From: Thermoplasmata archaeon
GTDB taxonomy: Archaea; Thermoplasmatota; E2; DHVEG-1
Reading direction: 5' to 3'
NCBI GenBank assembly: GCA_020054475.1
Contig: JAHWGJ010000004.1
Coordinates: forward strand, 5,384-69,383
Length of the DNA stretch: 64,000 nt
Part shown: one piece after another, positions 50,856-63,600 of the stretch
Position numbering within the stretch: the stretch's first letter is position 1
Layout of the letters: each line of letters opens with the position of its first letter
Translations under genes and position numbers: made by a program
Notes under the pieces: model-generated
What the model was told of the DNA's origin: nothing
The model's database searches: none
Seen by the model: the letters and a program-made list of their open reading frames with translations, nothing else

Positions 50856-51059
50856 ATGAATGAAGAAGATAAAAAAGAATTTTTAGAAGATTTTCGAAAA
50901 GCAAATGGAGATGCAAAACTTGATATGTGGTATTACGCACTTGAACAAGAAGTTTTATGGGAATCAATATTAGCAGATATGTCAGAAATTGCAAAAGAAC
51001 AAAAAATGGATAAAAAATTAGACGACATGATGAAAGAAGATATTAAAAAAATTTCATAA
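50856..51059 (+). CDS. Small acidic hypothetical protein
   Basis: ORF only. Confidence 0.2.
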   Translation: MNEEDKKEFLEDFRKANGDAKLDMWYYALEQEVLWESILADMSEIAKEQKMDKKLDDMMKEDIKKIS

Positions 51060-51451
51060 TACTTTAAAATATTTTTCTTCTAGATTATAATAATAAATTT
51101 TTGTTTTATAGCATAAATATTAGTATATTTAATTGTTAGATATTAACAATAATTCTTTATTAAATGGAGGTAATAATTTGGATAAAATTGAAATAATAAG
51201 AAGAGCAGAGAATGCTATTTTATGGTTAGAAAATGCTGAGCGAGCTGTAGTTGATGCTAAGGAAGATATAATCAAATTAATTGAAGAGGCGAAAAAATAA
51301 TATTTTTTTTTCAATTAAGATTTGACATGACATTTAATACAAACATTATGTTTTATATCAAAACAATTTCTACAAACTAACGTCCCGCATAATATACAAG
51401 TAAACAATACACTAGGTTTTCCACAAATATTACATAAACCAGAAATTTCCA

Positions 51452-52238: not shown

Positions 52239-53633
52239 GTGGTTCATATGGTTACTACTCCTTATGATGTCGATAGATATATCGTCAATATGTTAAATAA
52301 TTTTCGTAATAAATCGCATAAAAAAGATGCTGAAGAATACCTATTTATTAGAGAAAGAATAGACAAAGTAAACAACTATACTAGACGAAATGATGTACAA
52401 GCTCTTTTATCCCTTGATTTTTTCCTAAAAGGTAAATCCTACGAAAAAGCAACACAAGATGATATACTTGCCTTTGAACAATATCTGGAAAAAGAATATG
52501 TAAGTCCTGGTAAAAAAGAAAGATACGAAAAAACAATAAAAGCAGGGAATGAAGCAATAAGACCAAAGGTTGGCCTTGACTCTGGATCAGTAGAACAATA
52601 TGAAGCACATATCAAAAGATTCTATAAATATCTATCAAATAAAAATGAATATAAGAAAGGGAAAAGATTTCAGAAAAATATTCCTTATCCGAATAGTGTT
52701 TCATGGATTTCTGCAAGTTCTCAAAATAGTAAAGAATTTCCAATTGACAAACTATTGAAAGAAGAAGAACTTCTTAAACTCCTAAATATGTGTGATAATA
52801 CAAGGGATAAAGCCATGATCTCTGCTGGATTTTATGATGCAGGATTGAGGATAGGGGAATTAATTTCATTAAATATACGAAGCGTAGGTTTTGATAAATT
52901 AGGTGGATATTTTATTTTGCCAAAAAAGGGAGAAAATCTTAAAACAGGCGTGAGGCGAATTAGATTATTTATTATGCCAAGTTCAACTAAATATCTCAAG
53001 GATTTTATTAATAATCATCCATTCAAAAAATATGAGGATGCACCATTATTTTTCACCCAGAATTATTCAACATTTAATAAGATAATCAATAAAATTAATA
53101 ATAATACTTTTAAAAAGGATGATTTTGAGGAAGTAAGACTATCAAGACCAGGCATTGAAAACAAGATTAAAAAATATTGTAATCTTGCAGGAATCTCAGT
53201 TCTTACCCCGCATCAATTAAGACATAATTCTGCAACTCTTTCTTGTAAAGCAGGATTTAATGAAGCACAAATGAGGTTGCGATATGGATGGAGTAAAACA
53301 TCAAAGATGCCGAGTAGATATACTCATCTTGTATCTGCTGATCTTGATGAAAAAATAAAACAGATTACTGGTTTTAAAGAACCTGATAAACCATTGAAGA
53401 GTAAACTTGAGAGTATAATCTGTTGGAATTGTAATGATGAGAATGTACCGACTAATAAGTTCTGTTCAATGTGTGGGAGCAATCTTAATCCCAAAAAAGA
53501 AGAAATTACTCCAACTGCTGCAGAAACTGGAATTGCATTACAAAAAAGCATGAATCAAGATGAAATGTATCAACTAATGTTTAAGAAATTACAGGATATG
53601 GAAAAAGAACTTAAAAAGCTAAAAAATAAATAA
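52239..53633 (+). CDS. Tyrosine recombinase / phage-type integrase with a C-terminal zinc-ribbon tail
   Basis: Catalytic-box residues: LRIGELISL (Arg), HQLRHNSATL (HxxR), SKMPSRYTHL (Tyr). C-terminal CWNC...CSMCG. Confidence 0.7.
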   Translation: MVHMVTTPYDVDRYIVNMLNNFRNKSHKKDAEEYLFIRERIDKVNNYTRRNDVQALLSLDFFLKGKSYEKATQDDILAFEQYLEKEYVSPGKKERYEKTIKAGNEAIRPKVGLDSGSVEQYEAHIKRFYKYLSNKNEYKKGKRFQKNIPYPNSVSWISASSQNSKEFPIDKLLKEEELLKLLNMCDNTRDKAMISAGFYDAGLRIGELISLNIRSVGFDKLGGYFILPKKGENLKTGVRRIRLFIMPSSTKYLKDFINNHPFKKYEDAPLFFTQNYSTFNKIINKINNNTFKKDDFEEVRLSRPGIENKIKKYCNLAGISVLTPHQLRHNSATLSCKAGFNEAQMRLRYGWSKTSKMPSRYTHLVSADLDEKIKQITGFKEPDKPLKSKLESIICWNCNDENVPTNKFCSMCGSNLNPKKEEITPTAAETGIALQKSMNQDEMYQLMFKKLQDMEKELKKLKNK

Positions 53634-56440: not shown

Positions 56441-56773
56441 ATGGAAAATAATTATAAAATAGGTTTAATTTTGATTGTTGTTGGCTATATATCTATTATA
56501 TCTGCATTAATTATTTCGTATGCTAGTTTTTTATCTATCCGTGATTATTCAAATTATGATTTATTTAATAATTTACATACTATATTCTTATTTGTTTTTA
56601 TAGCTGGATTAATATTAATTCCAATAGGACTTATTTTACAATCTTTAAAAATTAAAATTAAGAAATTCTCTAAAAAACCAGTTGAAATGGCAAGAAAAAT
56701 ACTATATGAAAGATATGCTAAAGGAGAGATTTCTAAGAAAGAATTTCAAGATATGAAAAAAGATTTAGAATGA
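56441..56773 (+). CDS. Two-TM membrane protein with C-terminal SHOCT domain
   Basis: C-terminus ILYERYAKGEISKKEFQDMKKDLE matches the SHOCT consensus (L..RYA.GEI..EE....K). Confidence 0.5.
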   Translation: MENNYKIGLILIVVGYISIISALIISYASFLSIRDYSNYDLFNNLHTIFLFVFIAGLILIPIGLILQSLKIKIKKFSKKPVEMARKILYERYAKGEISKKEFQDMKKDLE

Positions 56774-56796
56774 TATGTTGAAAAGAAGTAGAACTA

Positions 56797-57090
56797 ATGA
56801 AAAATAATTACATTACTGTTGGAGTGACTATTATTCAAGTATGTGGTGTATTAGCAGTTGTATTCTATGCTTTGTTGTTTGAATCAATATTAACTTATGC
56901 TATGATTCTAGGTGTGATTATAGGTATTATTATATTGATTATTGGAAAAACAGAAAGTGAGAAAGAAGTTATTAAGAGTAATCCATCAAAACAAGATAAT
57001 AAAGCATTACAAATCTTAAAAGAGAGATATGCAAAAGGTGAGATAACAAAGAGAGAATTTAAGGATATGAAGAAGGATGTAGAGGGATAG
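56797..57090 (+). CDS. Two-TM membrane protein with C-terminal SHOCT domain (paralog)
   Basis: ILKERYAKGEITKREFKDMKKDVEG. Confidence 0.5.
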   Translation: MKNNYITVGVTIIQVCGVLAVVFYALLFESILTYAMILGVIIGIIILIIGKTESEKEVIKSNPSKQDNKALQILKERYAKGEITKREFKDMKKDVEG

Positions 57091-57093
57091 AAT

Positions 57094-57513
57094 ATGGGTT
57101 TAATGAAATATTTAGGTGGTATTGGACTTTACTTGTTAGGTGGATTTTTAATATTTATTGGTATAGTATCTTCAATTGTTGCTATTGAAATGTGTGCAAT
57201 TTTAGTTGTTGTTGGTATTATTATTTTATTATCAGGTGTTTTTTATACAAGAACTTCAACTTATGACGTTCCAAGACATATAAAAATTGTAAATAAGAAA
57301 AAGAAAAGAGATGATGATATAAGATGCACAAATTGTGGAAGAGTAATACCTATAGATGCTAAAATTTGTCCATATTGTAGTAAGAAATTAATTGAGGATG
57401 TTAAAGAAATAAATGATAGCAACTCTCCAATTGAAATTTTAAAGAATAGATTTGCAAAGGGTGAACTTACTGAAGAAGAGTATGAAAGAATGAAGAAGAA
57501 ATTAGAAGGATAG
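57094..57513 (+). CDS. Two-TM membrane protein with internal zinc ribbon and C-terminal SHOCT domain (paralog)
   Basis: CTNCGRV...CPYCSKK, then ILKNRFAKGELTEEEYERMKKKLEG. Confidence 0.5.
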   Translation: MGLMKYLGGIGLYLLGGFLIFIGIVSSIVAIEMCAILVVVGIIILLSGVFYTRTSTYDVPRHIKIVNKKKKRDDDIRCTNCGRVIPIDAKICPYCSKKLIEDVKEINDSNSPIEILKNRFAKGELTEEEYERMKKKLEG

Positions 57514-57889: not shown

Positions 57890-58159
57890 ATGATAAGAAA
57901 AAATGTTGGTTTTTTAATTATGTTCATTGGTGGTCTTGGCTTAGGATTACTATTAGGAAATGAGTTTTCAAGTTCTTATATAACAATAGTTGGAGCTATA
58001 TTATTATTAATTACTATAGGTTCAATAATAATATTGTCTTATAACAAAAAGGATAAGGATTTAAAACCTGGTTCAAAAGCATACGATGAAATTGGAGATC
58101 TTACTGAACTATCTTATGAACTCAGAGATAGAAGTAAAGGTAAGGATAAGGTGAAATGA
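57890..58159 (+). CDS. Small two-TM membrane protein with K/D-rich tail ending GKDKVK
   Basis: ORF. The tail motif recurs in micro-ORFs 58330..58380 and 60809..60856. Confidence 0.4.
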   Translation: MIRKNVGFLIMFIGGLGLGLLLGNEFSSSYITIVGAILLLITIGSIIILSYNKKDKDLKPGSKAYDEIGDLTELSYELRDRSKGKDKVK

Positions 58160-58287
58160 AAGGAATTAAAGAAAAGAATTTTTGTGATAAATGTAAAACA
58201 ATGACTTGGCATGAATATAGAGGAACAACAAAAAAAAGAAAAGGACAAACAGAGTGTCTTGAGTGTCATAATATAAGAATTTTATAA
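58156..58287 (+). CDS. Small zinc-ribbon protein (43 aa). ATG overlaps the upstream TGA (GTGAAATGAAAGG).
   Basis: NFCDKCKTMTWHEY...CLECHN. Paralog of 60589..60786 (NYCDNCKTNTWHRY...CQVCKH). Confidence 0.4.
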   Translation: MKGIKEKNFCDKCKTMTWHEYRGTTKKRKGQTECLECHNIRIL

Positions 58288-58370
58288 AAAAAAGATAAAG
58301 ATATTGGTTTGATTAATGAGGAAATTGAGATGAGTTATTATAAACCTGATAAAAAGAAAGGTGTGGGTAA

Positions 58371-58598
58371 GGTGAAATAATCGTTTTAAAATTTAAGAAG
58401 AGAAAAAAGATTAAGTTAAAATCAAAATATAAAACAAAAATCGCTTATTGGATTTGTAGTGATTGCCATTGTGAATTTACAGACTCAGAGGATTATAAAA
58501 AATTGACAAAAAAGATAACATGTCCTTATTGTGGTAGAAAAAATATGACACATTTTAAAGAAGGAAAATATTCTGCCGATGTTATAAATAACATCTAA
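58371..58598 (+). CDS. Zinc-ribbon ORF (CSDCHC...CPYCGRKN) with no canonical start codon. Open stop-to-stop.
   Basis: Frame opens after TAA 58368-70. It overlaps the tail of micro-ORF MSYYKPDKKKGVGKVK (58330..58380). Confidence 0.25.
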   Translation, partial: GEIIVLKFKKRKKIKLKSKYKTKIAYWICSDCHCEFTDSEDYKKLTKKITCPYCGRKNMTHFKEGKYSADVINNI

Positions 58599-58620
58599 AA
58601 AATTACATTTAAATTTTTTT

Positions 58621-58712
58621 AAATCCCCCCTGTTGAAAAATAGTGTTATAATGCCTTAAAACCTGTTTTTCTCATGTTACACCCATGTTTTATAGGAGAA
58701 ACAACCTTATAA
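58621..58712 (+). repeat. Conserved intergenic element type A, copy 1 (AAATCCCCCCTGTTGAAAAATAGTGTTATAATGCC ... hairpin ... AGGAGAAACAACCTTA)
   Basis: Seen in sequence. Four copies share a TGTTATAATGC box, a T-run, and a CTCCTGTTAC...AGGAGAAA hairpin. Confidence 0.55.
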
Positions 58713-59036
58713 ACATTATAATAATAAAATTTATATCTTTTAATTTTATATAATTGTTGGGAGATAATATAGAGGGATTTATATTGAAGTTTATTAAATT
58801 GTCATTTATTATTAGTATACTCTTTTTTAGTTTGTTTATATCATTTTCAATAATATATCCAAAATCCAATATTGCATCTGCTGTAGATCCATATACAATT
58901 TGATTCAATTGTAATATTAGAAATTGAAGATTCAAGTGTTTTAGATATACCCATTCATCCTTTAAAAGGTGTTAAAAACATAGATATTAAGATTAAATAT
59001 TTTAATACAATTCCAAAAGAAATTAAGGACAGTTTT

Positions 59037-59798
59037 ATGATTAAAGGATTACTTTTTGGATTTAATAAATTTTCATTTATAACACCAGTTAATTTAACCA
59101 TAGAACGTACTAGCATACCAAATTGGTGTAATGTATCAATAATACCGCCAATTATAATTTTTGATGCATTTGATGATGGAGAAAATCTTGAACGTAGAGC
59201 TACTCTGCAGGTAGCTGTTAATAAAAAATCAACAGCTTTATTCCCATTTACATTGAGCATAATTGCTAAAGCAGATACACCAGACCCAAACATTAAACCT
59301 CCTCCTATTGCTACATTACCAATTACAATAACCCCGGGGTATGTTCCATTAATCTCCACTGATCCAGGTGCAGCAATTAAAAAAACTATACCGGGTAAAC
59401 CTGTTAATTGGAATATAAGAATATCTAACAATGGAAATGGTGAAGCTTTAGTTAAAGCTCGAATAATTAACTATCTTGAAGGATGGATTGTATCAGTAAA
59501 CCCTCAGATATTAATTCCATCACTAGCAGATGGAAAAAATAATGAAAATAACTTGTCATTAACAGCATTACCTCCTTTAAATATGGGTTATTATAATGAA
59601 AATGTAAAGATTGAAATTGAATTAACACCAGAATTTTCATCTCCAGGGGCTGGATCTTTGATTAATTCAATGAAAGGTGAACCAATGTATCTTACACTAT
59701 TAGTACAACTGAGAGGTTTCTCATTACCAGGATTTGAATTTATATTCATTATAATTGGAATATTGATTATTATAATTGTTAGAAAAAATAAGATATGA
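59037..59798 (+). CDS. Surface protein with canonical PGF-CTERM archaeosortase sorting signal
   Basis: C-terminus RGFSLPGFEFIFIIIGILIIIIVRKNKI is PGF, then a TM helix, then a basic tail. Pro/Thr/Ile-rich body. N-terminal signal not evident. Overlaps the minus-strand ORF 58955..59431. Confidence 0.45.
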   Translation: MIKGLLFGFNKFSFITPVNLTIERTSIPNWCNVSIIPPIIIFDAFDDGENLERRATLQVAVNKKSTALFPFTLSIIAKADTPDPNIKPPPIATLPITITPGYVPLISTDPGAAIKKTIPGKPVNWNIRISNNGNGEALVKARIINYLEGWIVSVNPQILIPSLADGKNNENNLSLTALPPLNMGYYNENVKIEIELTPEFSSPGAGSLINSMKGEPMYLTLLVQLRGFSLPGFEFIFIIIGILIIIIVRKNKI

Positions 59799-59853
59799 AA
59801 AAATTTATAATTGCAAATAAAAAAGAAAAATAAGTATTTTTGGAGATAATCAA

Positions 59854-59982
59854 ATGGATGAAACAAGAAAATGTCCGTTATGCAATCAGAACTTATTTGA
59901 AAATATTGTATGGAGTAATCAATTAGTCAGATACTGCCACGATTGTCAGAAAATCTTTATTAATAATAACGAGTATTTTTAA
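59854..59982 (+). CDS. Small zinc-ribbon protein (42 aa)
   Basis: CPLCNQ...CHDCQK. Confidence 0.3.
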   Translation: MDETRKCPLCNQNLFENIVWSNQLVRYCHDCQKIFINNNEYF

Positions 59983-60029
59983 GGTGATAATATAGAAATT
60001 TGTTGAACTGGAATTAAATAAATAATTGT

Positions 60030-60128
60030 TTTTCCCTCCTTTTGGAATTAGTGTTATAATACCTTAAAACCTGTTTTATCTCCTGTTACACCCCCATCTA
60101 CCAAGGAGAAACAACCTTTTAAAGCAAA
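60030..60128 (+). repeat. Conserved intergenic element type A, copy 2
   Basis: tttttccctccttttggaattagtgttataataccttaaaacctgttttatctcctgttacacccccatctaccaaggagaaacaaccttttaaagcaa. Confidence 0.55.
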
Positions 60129-60153
60129 TTCATATTATTAAGTATTGGTAAAG

Positions 60154-60273
60154 ATGGAAGATAAGAAACCTATGATCTGTAATTATTGTAAAAAAATAAT
60201 ATATGCAGATCATGAATGTTTTGAAGAACATGAAGGTAAATACTATCATGCAGACTGCAAGGACAAAATTTAA
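60154..60273 (+). CDS. Small zinc-finger protein (39 aa)
   Basis: CNYCKK...HECFEEHEGKYYHADC. Confidence 0.3.
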   Translation: MEDKKPMICNYCKKIIYADHECFEEHEGKYYHADCKDKI

Positions 60274-60319
60274 CAATTGAAATTGAATAATTTAATAATT
60301 GCAATAGAGGATTAAATAG

Positions 60320-60580
60320 ATGATTTGGCAGGATTATGCAATAACAATAATCGTTTACATGTTCGTTGCAGTAACTATACCACAATTAATAGATGTAATT
60401 AAAGGAAGAACGTCGTTGAATCTTTTCACTGCTGGAGCAACATCTCTTGGTAACTATGGTCTTGCATATATATTCTTCACTTTAGATTTATGGTTATCAG
60501 TAACATCAGCAATTCTTATTGCAACTCTTTGGATGTTATTGTTTTTATTTTCAATGAGAAACAAAAAAAAGGGAAAATAG
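60320..60580 (+). CDS. Small two-TM membrane protein
   Basis: ORF, hydrophobic. Confidence 0.4.
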   Translation: MIWQDYAITIIVYMFVAVTIPQLIDVIKGRTSLNLFTAGATSLGNYGLAYIFFTLDLWLSVTSAILIATLWMLLFLFSMRNKKKGK

Positions 60581-60588
60581 GATTATAA

Positions 60589-60786
60589 ATGATTAATAAA
60601 ATGTTGGAAGAAAATATTGAAGGAATAAAGGAACGCAACTATTGTGATAACTGCAAAACAAATACTTGGCACAGATATTTTGAATCAAATGTAATTGGAG
60701 ATTCATATAATCAATGTCAAGTATGTAAACACAAACGATTCCAAAAAGATTTTATTGGAATTCGTGATAGAAAATTTAAACAATGA
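60589..60786 (+). CDS. Small zinc-ribbon protein (paralog of 58156..58287)
   Basis: NYCDNCKTNTWHRY...CQVCKHKRF. Confidence 0.4.
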   Translation: MINKMLEENIEGIKERNYCDNCKTNTWHRYFESNVIGDSYNQCQVCKHKRFQKDFIGIRDRKFKQ

Positions 60787-60855
60787 TGTGATTGGTGAGA
60801 AAACCGAGATGAGTTATTACGCACCAGATAAGAAAGATAAGGATAAGGTGAAATA

Positions 60856-61155
60856 ATGAAGGTTAGATATTATCTTATTGGATTGATACTAATAATATTA
60901 GGTTTCCTATCTTTTGTATCGATAGCTGTATTAAATGAATATTCCTGGATGAATATTACATATCATATTATTCTAACAATATCTGGTTTTCTATTGATAG
61001 CTCTTGGTATAATCAGTATGATTATATTTCTTAGACCGAAGAATAAAGCAAAACCATCTCAAGAAGAACAGGACGTTGATCTTGCTGATAAGCTTGAGGA
61101 TTCAGCAGTTTATCATGCTCAACATAAAAAGAAAGTTAAGGATAAGAGGGAATAA
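60856..61155 (+). CDS. Small two-TM membrane protein with K-rich tail. ATG overlaps the TAA of micro-ORF 60809..60856.
   Basis: ORF, hydrophobic N-terminal half. Confidence 0.4.
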   Translation: MKVRYYLIGLILIILGFLSFVSIAVLNEYSWMNITYHIILTISGFLLIALGIISMIIFLRPKNKAKPSQEEQDVDLADKLEDSAVYHAQHKKKVKDKRE

Positions 61156-61157
61156 AA

Positions 61158-61448
61158 TTGTTATTTGAAAAGAAGGAAAACAAAGACAAGGAAGAAAAAA
61201 TTAATCCTGTTTATCATCCTTATGTTAACAAACCTTATTATCATGATAGTATATTTTTCAATGGTAAATATTATCATGGTACTATTAAGGAGGGGATTGC
61301 TGAATTATGTGATGATCCTATCAATCCATGTAGACTTTCTATGCTTGTAAAAGTTAAAACACAGAGGATAAAAACTATTTATGACGGCGGGGATACTGAG
61401 ATAATTGTTATTGAAGGGGAAATATTAAAAGATTATACAAAAATGTAA
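61158..61448 (+). CDS. Small hypothetical protein (His/Tyr-rich N-terminus)
   Basis: ORF only. Confidence 0.3.
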   Translation: MLFEKKENKDKEEKINPVYHPYVNKPYYHDSIFFNGKYYHGTIKEGIAELCDDPINPCRLSMLVKVKTQRIKTIYDGGDTEIIVIEGEILKDYTKM

Positions 61449-61545
61449 TTTCCCTTATGTTGGAAATTGTGTTATAATGCTTTAAAAGGTACTTTTTACT
61501 CCTGTTAACCCCTAGGTCTATAGGAGAAATAATACTTTTAATTAC
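61447..61545 (+). repeat. Conserved intergenic element type A, copy 3
   Basis: aatttcccttatgttggaaattgtgttataatgctttaaaaggtactttttactcctgttaacccctaggtctataggagaaataatacttttaattac. Confidence 0.55.
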
Positions 61546-61589: not shown

Positions 61590-61778
61590 ATGAAATCTAG
61601 AGAAACCTGTATTAAATGTGGTCGTAACAAATCATCTGATAATGTGTCTTTGTTTTGTGTATCATGTAAAAACAAGATCATCAACTATTGTTGGAATTAT
61701 CAAAATAAACTACAAGATAGTTATTTAAATCGTAAGAGTCCCACAACAGGTCCAATTTTTTTTAAATTATCATCCTGA
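61590..61778 (+). CDS. Small zinc-ribbon protein
   Basis: CIKCGRNK...CVSCKNK. The 3' end overlaps the convergent eRF1-like gene. Confidence 0.3.
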   Translation: MKSRETCIKCGRNKSSDNVSLFCVSCKNKIINYCWNYQNKLQDSYLNRKSPTTGPIFFKLSS

Positions 61779-62788
61779 CTAAATTCAACAATCGCATCAG
61801 TTCGTTCCGCGATTTTAACGATCTCTTCGACAATATCAACTTCGGATGTTTTCTTTCCACAGGCCGGACAGATAGATAAGATACCTTCTTCAATGAGTTG
61901 ACAGCGTTCGCAAATCCAACCTTTTTGTTTAACATCTTTTTCTACAAGCAATGCCTCCACTTGTCCATTTTTCACTGCTGTTAATGTATTTTTAAGACCA
62001 TATACTGCCAATCCGTTTTTCAAAATCTCAATTCGAATCAGTTCAAGTAACCGTTGATGTTCCTGTTTACCTTTTTCTTTCATTATTTCATGTGTTTCAT
62101 TGAACAATCCATATTCATCATCCATATCAACATTCACTTCTGCAATTACGCCTTTTTGAAGCATTATTGGTAACATGTCACGAAAGTGTTTCTTCGTTTC
62201 CCCTGGGCCTGCAAGAAGAATGTTATCTCGTGCAATTTTTTGAAGAGCCTCAACAATTTCTGTTAAAAAGGTATGTATATTTCCTTTTCTTAATCGTTGG
62301 AATCGTGCTTGGGACATACCACCTTTTTTATGCTTATTCATAATATCTGCAGAGAGATCTTTTTCGGTATTTAGTTCTCCGCAGGAAAAAGAAAATATTT
62401 TTGCATGATTAGAATTCAGCAACACAAGAGTATAAACCTGCCATTCATCAGCTAACTCAGCTATCTGATGAATATAAGGAGATACGTCAACAACAAGAGA
62501 ATTTTTTACGTTCACGGGAAATGTGATAGCCTTGAAAAAATTATTTTTATCAGATGCAAAAATTGCGTGATTTGATCCCTTGTTTTTCTTCAAATATGTC
62601 TTTATCTCATTGATTGTTTTTAAGAAATTTTTTAATTCATCATATTTTAAAATGTGTTGAATCACTTTTTCTCTGTGTTGAATAAAATGTTCATCTTTTC
62701 CATCAAAATATAGACTAACAAATGTTTTCAAATTATCTTTATCATAAATTTCAATAAGTCCAGGTAATGATTTATCACATGTCTTCAT
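61721..62788 (-). CDS. eRF1/aRF1-like release-factor paralog: divergent N-domain, GGQ loop replaced by [16 protein letters not shown], C-domain with a CxxC-x12-CxxC zinc ribbon
   Basis: Central and C-terminal blocks align by eye to eRF1. [29 protein letters not shown] matches [43 protein letters not shown] matches [32 protein letters not shown] matches [29 protein letters not shown] matches GIGGILRYRVDF. No NIKS or YxCxxxF motif in the N-domain. Confidence 0.55.
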   Translation of the reverse strand: [355 protein letters not shown]

Positions 62789-63503: not shown

Positions 63504-63600
63504 AAATCCCCCCTGTTGAAAATACTGTTATAATGCTTTAAAACCCTTTTTTTCTCCTGTTACCCTCTATTTACTAAGGAGAAATACTACTTTAAAGCAA
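63504..63600 (+). repeat. Conserved intergenic element type A, copy 4 (perfect 8-bp stem TTTCTCCT / AGGAGAAA)
   Basis: gaaatcccccctgttgaaaatactgttataatgctttaaaaccctttttttctcctgttaccctctatttactaaggagaaatactactttaaagcaa. Confidence 0.55.

Follow-up and report, generated by a model that had tools for sequence, protein, structure and literature searches.

A reused ribosome-binding-site/stop junction and a conserved micro-ORF among the small genes of a putative archaeal MCM/integrase element

Introduction

The 64,000-nucleotide stretch analysed here (the window) comes from a Thermoplasmata archaeon (assembly GCA_020054475.1, contig JAHWGJ010000004.1, positions 5,384 to 69,383 of the forward strand). 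Within its final ~18 kb, which presumably represent an integrated mobile element, a zinc-ribbon gene (ZnA) is found at two places, each time followed by an open reading frame (ORF) of 15–16 codons, the micro-ORF, which ends in KVK and whose stop codon overlaps the beginning of the next gene (Table 1). At the first place, the order is a membrane protein with two transmembrane segments (2-TM; mem1), ZnA1, micro-ORF 1, and a second zinc ribbon, ZnB, which lacks a canonical start codon. At the second place, an unrelated membrane protein is followed by ZnA2, micro-ORF 2, another 2-TM protein (mem3), and the ORF at 61158. We compared both places with related loci from metagenomes and asked what the micro-ORF and its junction with the next gene might do.

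Table 1. Features of the two ZnA/micro-ORF places and two further genes of the element (window positions).
Feature	Position	Strand	Remarks
2-TM membrane protein (mem1), 89 aa	57890..58159	+	C-terminal tail ending in DEIGDLTELSYELRDRSKGKDKVK and stop, encoded by the junction module; paralog of 60856-61155
Junction module copy 1, AGTAAAGGTAAGGATAAGGTGAAATGA	58133..58160	+	Tandem AAGG Shine-Dalgarno-like motifs; stop TGA overlaps ZnA1 ATG (ATGA)
ZnA1, short-form zinc ribbon, 43 aa, NFCDKCKTMTWH...CLEC	58156..58287	+	79%-identity homologs in L012, L013, L014
GAGGA, Shine-Dalgarno-like	58318..58322	+	7 nt 5' of micro-ORF 1 ATG
Micro-ORF 1, MSYYKPDKKKGVGKVK and stop	58330..58380	+	AAGGTGA 58369-58375 in last codons; TAA 58378-58380 overlaps ZnB ATC by 1 nt
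ZnB, zinc ribbon, 72 codons from ATC	58380..58598	+	Two CxxC pairs, lysine-rich N-terminus
Membrane protein before ZnA2, 86 aa	60320..60580	+	Same gene precedes ZnA in L009
ZnA2, long-form zinc ribbon, 65 aa	60589..60786	+	
GGTGA	60794..60798	+	10 nt 5' of micro-ORF 2 ATG; in 4/5 long-form haplotypes, lost in L007 type
Micro-ORF 2, MSYYAPDKKDKDKVK and stop	60809..60856	+	GGTGA 60847-60851; TAA overlaps ATG of 60856-61155 (TAATG)
2-TM membrane protein (mem3), 99 aa	60856..61155	+	Tail ...KKKVKDKRE and stop; variant junction GATAAGAGGGAATAAAATTG feeds TTG start 61158
ORF with TTG start, 96 aa	61158..61448	+	2 nt past preceding stop; final member of the coupled string
MCM helicase, short, 444 aa	46790-48124		Element gene
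Tyrosine integrase fused to C-terminal zinc ribbon	52239-53633		Element gene

Results

The repeated unit consists of ZnA, the micro-ORF, and a junction module

All ORFs listed in the first-pass annotation of the window exist, and so do the stop/start overlaps that it described: ATGA at 58156-58159, TAATG at 60854-60858, and TAATC at 58378-58382. In the six-frame translation of the window, the micro-ORF pattern MSYY.PDK and the zinc-ribbon pattern C..CK...WH each occur exactly twice. The annotation had interpreted the arrangement as a duplicated cassette of three genes, headed by a membrane protein, of which two genes withstood closer comparison. The two micro-ORF regions align with a score of 62, a level reached by 0 of 2000 shuffles (shuffle mean 16.6, z=17), and ZnA1 and ZnA2, both NxCDxCKTxTWH zinc ribbons, share 40% amino acid identity (E=3e-11). 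The membrane proteins at the head of the two copies, however, are unrelated (57890-58159 versus 60320-60580, E=0.31). The true paralog of mem1 is mem3 (E=1e-4, 30% identity over 83 residues including the tail), which is located after micro-ORF 2 and not before ZnA2. Because the membrane genes are not homologous as paired, the repeated unit comprises ZnA, the micro-ORF, and a junction module of ~30 nt. The earlier observation was largely correct, with the unit mis-delimited. Searches of ZnA, ZnB, and the membrane proteins against Pfam, PHROGs, and NCBIfam gave nothing but sub-threshold zinc-ribbon matches, and a PQ-loop identity considered for the membrane protein before ZnA2 was dropped for want of a Pfam match.

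The junction module is purine-rich and present four times in the window (58133-58160, 58354-58381, 60830-60857, and 61129-61156), forming the 3' end of a 2-TM gene in two copies and that of a micro-ORF in the other two. It can be written as ...AAAGNTAAGGATAAGGTGAAAT(A/G)A and contains one to three Shine-Dalgarno-like AAGG/GGTGA motifs, followed by a 4-nt spacer holding the stop codon. Its core, AAGGTGAAAT(A/G)A, is complementary to the conserved anti-Shine-Dalgarno sequence at the 3' end of archaeal 16S rRNA, AUCACCUCCU (PMC7531240). Read in frame with the 2-TM genes, the module yields a ...KDKVK tail before the stop; behind ZnA, the module is on its own and a conserved ATG (GAGATGAGTTAT) opens the frame, which results in the micro-ORF.

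We found the 11-mer A(A/G)GTGAAAT(A/G)A 14 times in the window and related loci, always at a gene junction and with a start codon that overlaps it or lies 0-7 nt later. The final five codons of the upstream ORF contain AAGGTGA or AAGGA, for which the L007 type has the weaker AAAGTGA. The stop-to-start distances are -4 at 58156, -1 at 58380 and 60856, +2 at 61158, and 0 to +7 in L002-L011. Two sequence features of termination-reinitiation pairs, a Shine-Dalgarno motif inside the upstream ORF and a spacing of about -8 to +10 nt (PMC10666635), are both present, and the compatibility with translational coupling noted at first extends to every junction (-4 to +7 nt).

The KVK ending could be taken for a peptide feature. 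In L014, however, GATAAGGATAAGGTGAAATG precedes ZnA beyond a TAATAA double stop and is hence non-coding, and in L004 and L006 the 11-mer is overlapped by the TAG of the upstream gene. As the same DNA is non-coding at these loci, we consider the KVK ending a protein-level imprint of the ribosome-binding site of the next gene.

The micro-ORF is conserved behind long-form ZnA

Relatives of ZnA are few among 5.8 billion proteins, and a metagenome scan with the ZnA alignment returned L007 and L008 only. Nine loci with a long-form ZnA stem from independent metagenomes (L002, L004-L007, L009-L011, and L008, which ends inside ZnA); the counts below refer to the eight that are readable past ZnA (L002, L004, L005, L006, L007, L009, L010, and L011). 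Conservation in homologous regions was the point on which the first-pass annotation had staked the micro-ORF, and it is present after ZnA in all eight loci, where ATGAGTTAT...GTGAAATAA begins 22 nt after ZnA. Together with copy 2 of the window, they represent five haplotypes (MSYHAPKKKDKVKVK, MSYYVPKKKCKDKVK, MSYYEPYKKDKDKVK, MSYYAPYKKDKDKVK, and MSYYAPDKKDKDKVK). Its ATG, frame, and TAA are constant across six haplotypes, i.e., these five and the paralog at 58330, which differs in length from the long-form micro-ORFs by a single 3-nt indel. A Shine-Dalgarno-like motif is found 7-10 nt before the ATG in five of the six haplotypes and is absent in the L007 type. The micro-ORF accordingly shows its own start, a putative ribosome-binding site of its own, and a conserved frame, as expected of a short relay ORF.

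All six haplotypes agree in the 12 nt around the ATG (GAGATGAGTTAT), whereas the flanking spacer is variable at 41% of its columns; this contrast is the best argument that the micro-ORF may be under constraint. Micro-ORFs 1 and 2 of the window also share 11 of 15 residues, even though their ZnA genes are only 40% identical. Scans with micro-ORF DNA patterns gave 0 matches in viral contigs and 0 in genome contigs.

The spacer and the micro-ORF resemble the final ~70 nt of mem1 (DEIGDLTELSYELRDRSKGKDKVK and stop, compared with (N)DVIGEKTE-MSYYAPDKKDKDKVK and stop). The likeness of the micro-ORF regions to the tails of 57890-58159 and 60856-61155 is significant (z=4.8-8.9) and comes mainly from the 3' ~30 nt, and the frame before the micro-ORF ATG reads D(V/I)IG...TE, comparable to DEIGDLTE in the mem1 tail. 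The micro-ORF is probably a detached gene tail that retained its junction.

Homology breaks at the micro-ORF stop codon

Nucleotide homology between the loci extends without a break over ZnA and the micro-ORF and ceases precisely at the TAA of the latter, behind which five unrelated genes are found: a 2-TM protein (ATG, -1 nt from the TAA), an Lrp/AsnC protein (ATG, +1 nt), a TFIIB-like zinc ribbon (TTG, +2 nt), a DUF4177 protein (ATG, 0 nt), and another membrane protein (ATG, +4 nt). These genes occupy all three frames relative to the micro-ORF. The order in L004 is ZnA, micro-ORF, TFIIB-like gene, AGGTGAAATAA, and DUF4177, and that in L007 is ZnA, micro-ORF (ending ...AAAGTGAAATAA), and DUF4177, the two DUF4177 proteins being 81% identical. 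L007 therefore matches L004 except for a single complete gene that L007 lacks. In L004, this gene has a copy of the 11-mer on either side, which implicates the junction in cassette exchange.

ZnB has a conserved ATC in place of a start codon

The ZnB frame opens at 58371, immediately after a TAA at 58368-58370, and reads GGT GAA ATA ATC GTT.... As noted at first, none of the codons ATG, GTG, and TTG precedes the first CxxC in the frame 58371-58598, where a canonical start is not reached until the TTG at 58503. It has an in-frame ATA at 58377 and an ATC at 58380, the latter exactly where the TAATG junction at 60856 has its ATG. Since ATC (or the adjacent ATA) stands precisely where the paralogous junctions have ATG, ZnB probably depends on a relay by the micro-ORF or on weak near-cognate initiation. 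In E. coli, for which initiation from all 64 codons has been measured, AUC initiates at ~0.02-3% of the level of AUG (bioRxiv 10.1101/063800). With de novo initiation at AUC that low, ZnB would gain most from a relay.

The frame without a start is intact in L007, with the same ATC: the L007 homolog is 74% identical at the amino acid level, retains 4/4 cysteines over 76 codons, and has an identical GGTGAAATAATCGTTTTAAAA including TAATC. It is preceded by a different 9-codon ORF, MVFNKDKVK and stop (ATGGTTTTTAATAAGGATAAGGTGAAATAA), whose ATG lies 2 nt past the stop of a 75-aa gene, an arrangement that, by its sequence, is laid out like a relay. A near-cognate codon conserved in a homolog and an otherwise full-length ORF, as would be anticipated for near-cognate initiation, are hence both found, in two DNA examples only.

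A HMMER search with ZnB of 1.84 billion representatives returned mostly long multi-zinc-finger proteins that match CxxC units, which we judged irrelevant; the informative relatives were P0026 and P0063 only. P0026 (74 aa) is 42% identical to the ZnB of the window in the alignment and 52% identical over the phmmer-matched stretch. Encoded on a 1591-bp contig of JGI 3300042731, it retains the lysine-rich N-terminus, with a start 4-5 codons ahead of the ATC position, and lies 21 nt past a 43-aa gene. As P0026 covers the same N-terminus, the ZnB of the window is essentially full length and lacks only an NTG start. P0063 (63 aa; L015:356-547 and L016:4001-4192) is a chimera of a new ATG-led 5' half and the ZnB 3' half with one CxxC left, which may be taken as a further sign of recombination among the small genes; its gene is followed by the same ~90-nt intergenic repeat as in L007 (see below). 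No match to ZnB was found in a word-indexed search of the 5.8-billion-protein database, and scans of genome and viral collections with back-translated ZnB returned no relatives.

Genomic setting

The window has a guanine-plus-cytosine (GC) content of 27% and carries archaeal housekeeping genes, encoding SMC_prok_A, the Hef nuclease, and a glycyl radical enzyme of the hydroxyproline dehydratase type. Besides the MCM helicase and the integrase, the ~18-kb stretch with the micro-ORFs encodes a helix-turn-helix protein and a PKD protein, after which dozens of genes of 30-140 codons each follow on the + strand. Judged by its gene content, this is the layout typical of an integrated archaeal mobile element with an MCM helicase and an integrase. 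A related element (L012/L013) contains a gene for a 443-aa MCM protein (L012:4062-5393), a ZnA gene, and homologs of the window genes 50856-51059 and 51133-51300. The MCM protein had no match among deposited phage genomes (tblastn), and scans of the window with Rfam and for tRNAs found none.

Three tandem paralogs at 56441-57513 encode 2-TM proteins with a C-terminal SHOCT domain, to which the third adds a zinc ribbon. Near-identical GA(G/A)GGATAGAATATG junctions link the second paralog, the third, and the small gene after them. From its sequence, GA(G/A)GGATAGAATATG is a second putative ribosome-binding-site/stop junction reused in the same element, analogous to the KVK-stop junction.

An intergenic repeat of ~90 nt is found in the window at 58622-58712, 60030-60122, 61448-61540, and 63504-63596, and elsewhere at L004:1850-1950, L007:1036-1130, L007:1722-1815, L009:140-236, L011:19-112, and L015:~550-640. 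It is confined to the small-gene part of the element, where each copy heads a gene cluster. Conserved within it are the blocks CCYCCTGTTGRAA, TATAAT, CTTAAAA, and CTCCTGTTAC-N13-AGGAGAAA. The last of these folds as a hairpin in most copies, and the shorter loop in L009 still pairs; RNAalifold returned no consensus pairs for the repeat. The repeat is probably a promoter plus 5' leader.

Two other observations concern the same small-gene region. A 49-aa ORF resembling a signal peptide (58754-58903) and one of 253 aa with a TM segment at its C-terminus (59037-59798) appear to be one gene for a secreted protein, split by a 1-nt frameshift near 58895-58905; the same gene call is found in the independent Logan contig L001. 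On the minus strand, 61721-62788 encodes a protein similar to eRF1/baeRF family 10, in which GGMSQ replaces the GGQ loop and which has a C-terminal CxxC...CxxC, amid the small genes of the element.

Discussion

A possible translational relay

We propose that the micro-ORF and its junction act as a translational relay by termination-reinitiation that doubles as a recombination joint, a proposal to which we give an even chance of being right. Ribosomes would translate the micro-ORF, terminate at its TAA, and re-initiate 0-7 nt away on any following cistron, aided by the Shine-Dalgarno site that they had just crossed. Because the same sequence is present at many gene boundaries, the shared junction could also serve as the recombination point at which downstream cassettes are swapped or deleted. 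From the features described above, we infer both the translation of the micro-ORF and the dependence of the downstream genes on it.

In Haloferax and E. coli, termination-reinitiation requires an overlap or a gap of at most ~10 nt, and no more of the upstream ORF is needed than its last 15 nt (PMC10666635). Intragenic Shine-Dalgarno motifs in the upstream gene usually raise coupling (PMC6728339), and it has been suggested that some short ORFs serve to bring ribosomes to a coupled gene (PMC12548453). By analogy, the geometry found here matches that of the experimentally studied cases. Like the pairs of Huber et al. (2019, PMC6728339; 2023, PMC10666635), neighbouring genes run in the same direction and either overlap (-4, ATGA; -1, TAATG) or are separated by at most 7 nt, the Shine-Dalgarno motif lies within the 3' end of the upstream ORF, and a short upstream ORF would suffice. 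Unlike in those pairs, the upstream partner is an ORF of 15-16 codons apparently without another role, one junction sequence is reused at many boundaries, and one downstream gene has ATC/ATA and not NTG.

The micro-ORF also resembles ribosome-delivering upstream ORFs and mycobacterial interspersed repetitive units (MIRUs; PMC12548453), in that a short ORF runs up to where the next gene starts, likely bringing a ribosome, and in that the sequence is repeated in the genome and expression tolerates its intergenic presence. MIRUs carry a coupled ORF and are described as mobile, inserting at start codons with an overlap of -4 (PMC12548453). In contrast, the module described here lacks a sign of independent mobility: the full micro-ORF is found only behind ZnA, only its 3' ~30 nt recur elsewhere, and the viral and genome collections gave no match to it. 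The module is uncoupled at its 5' end, 22-42 nt past the ZnA stop, and is either attached to ZnA or a genuine gene tail.

The ATC of ZnB brings a further comparison. Genes with near-cognate AUU, AUC, or AUA starts exist, e.g., infC and pcnB in E. coli. Like these, ZnB has a near-cognate codon at the correct Shine-Dalgarno distance, conserved in a second locus. Unlike the infC/pcnB type, it comes with no evidence of autoregulation, its host is archaeal, and its codon overlaps the upstream stop (TAATC). This overlap suggests that reinitiation rather than de novo selection may be involved. As to evolution, mosaic exchange of gene cassettes at conserved gene boundaries is known from phages and other mobile elements. 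The loci here share with it that homology breaks at a gene boundary and that one cassette is deleted between two short direct repeats. They differ in that the repeat at the boundary is formed by ribosome-binding site, stop, and spacer themselves (11 nt) and in that the exchanged genes have 40-100 codons.

Several observations weigh against such a relay. Four ZnA relatives have no micro-ORF (L003, L012, L013, and L014), which is therefore not obligatory for ZnA. Among the haplotypes, nucleotide identity is 96% in the ZnA core, 84% in the ZnA C-terminal extension, 82% in the spacer, and 88% in the micro-ORF, so that the micro-ORF is less conserved than the ZnA core, though above the spacer. Its variable sites are distributed 3/3/5 over the codon positions as compared with 7/9/8 in ZnA, in very close loci with few substitutions; as even ZnA shows no third-position excess, these numbers cannot prove coding constraint. 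In the L007 haplotype, the GGTGA before the micro-ORF has been lost and a synonymous AAG-to-AAA change has weakened the internal motif to AAAGTGA; neither Shine-Dalgarno motif is thus indispensable. RNA folding of five junction regions gave no common structure (z -2.05 to +0.35) and hence no conserved RNA structure tying the downstream ribosome-binding site to upstream translation. For ZnB, comparison with L007 gives a ratio of nonsynonymous to synonymous change (pN/pS) of 0.65 from 23 substitutions; this value cannot be told apart from neutral evolution, and ZnB could be a recently decapitated pseudogene. In addition, one Sulfolobus gene pair with adjacent stop and start has been reported to be uncoupled (PMC6728339).

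Alternative explanations

The main rival to the relay is that the micro-ORF is a relic, namely the leftover 3' end of a 2-TM-type gene that is untranslated or irrelevantly translated. The downstream genes would then start de novo at AGGTGA, ZnB would be a decapitated pseudogene or made at trace level, and the micro-ORF would owe its survival only to its last ~20 nt being the ribosome-binding site of the next gene. The alignment with the 3' tails of mem1 and mem3, the D(V/I)IG...TE reading before the ATG, a junction that functions without an overlying ORF in L014 and L004/L006, the lack of a coding signal in the codon-position data, the pN/pS of ZnB, and the four ZnA relatives without a micro-ORF all suit this explanation. 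It is less easily reconciled with the invariant 12 nt around the ATG next to a variable spacer, with 3 nt as the only length difference among micro-ORFs, and with the similarity of micro-ORFs 1 and 2 in excess of that of their ZnA genes. ZnB, moreover, has remained open over 72-76 codons in DNA of 27% GC, with 4/4 cysteines and the same ATC in two metagenomes, while its flanks have diverged or been replaced. We regard a relic as possible and keep it as the serious competitor.

A functional role of the peptide itself appears unlikely to us. Such a basic micropeptide, M-S-Y-(Y/H)-x-P-x-K-K-x-K-x-K-V-K, would act together with ZnA, e.g., as a partner or as a nucleic-acid-binding tail in trans. 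It is a constant companion of long-form ZnA whatever gene lies downstream, conserves M, S, Y, P, KK, and KVK between paralogs with such divergent ZnA genes, and shows several synonymous changes (TAT/TAC, CCT/CCA, GCA/GCT, and AAG/AAA). On the other hand, positions 5, 7, 10, and 12 vary freely (e.g., K/A/V/E and D/K/Y), the C-terminal half is set by the ribosome-binding site, the short-form ZnA relatives do without it, and 15 residues are too short for any homology test.

Programmed recoding, by which ZnA would be fused to the tail (by readthrough in copy 1 and a +1 frameshift in copy 2) or the micro-ORF to ZnB by a -1 frameshift, is very improbable: ZnA1 and micro-ORF 1 do share one frame, parted only by the TAA at 58285-58287, and the long-form micro-ORF frame is open back over the ZnA stop, but neither a conserved recoding site nor a consistent frame relation was found, given that the ZnA/micro-ORF frame relation differs between the copies (0 versus +1), the context of the ZnA stop is not conserved (AAACAATGA, AAAAAATGA, and AAGCAATGA) and lacks a slippery motif, the spacer changes are mostly non-synonymous in that frame (V/G, G/C, E/K, and K/I), a TAA shuts the ZnB frame three codons ahead of the ATC, in L007 as well as in the window, without an X_XXY_YYZ site, and the downstream genes occupy all three relative frames. 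Of the two routes to ZnB that the first-pass annotation had envisaged, reinitiation is consequently the more plausible, whereas frameshifting finds no support, given the TAA at 58368-58370 and the missing slippery heptamer.

Implications

A bolder version of the relay proposal appears doubtful to us at present. In this version, the micro-ORF and its junction would be a portable translational adaptor of an archaeal MCM/integrase element family, making any recombined cassette expressible, including a gene with an AUC/AUA start read solely by termination-reinitiation, and the 11-nt sequence would be both the ribosome-binding site and the recombination joint driving the shuffling.

In itself, the micro-ORF and junction would add a modest new case to a principle already known, translational coupling of an ordinary kind. 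Its most interesting detail, and the easiest to test, is the conserved TAATC junction. Such junctions may be sought with the pattern AAGGTGAAATAATCG, beside GAGATGAGTTAT-N(20-40)-GTGAAATAA. For annotation, the junctions illustrate that conserved C-terminal "motifs" such as KDKVK before a stop can be traces of a ribosome-binding site that serves the following gene, not protein features. If the relay is true, the micro-ORF would be a natural archaeal short ORF whose sole job is to hand ribosomes to the next cistron, and ZnB would be a case of reinitiation at a non-NTG codon overlooked by current gene callers. A shared ribosome-binding-site/stop junction can also double as a breakpoint for swapping very small genes, which helps to explain the mosaic evolution of mobile elements.

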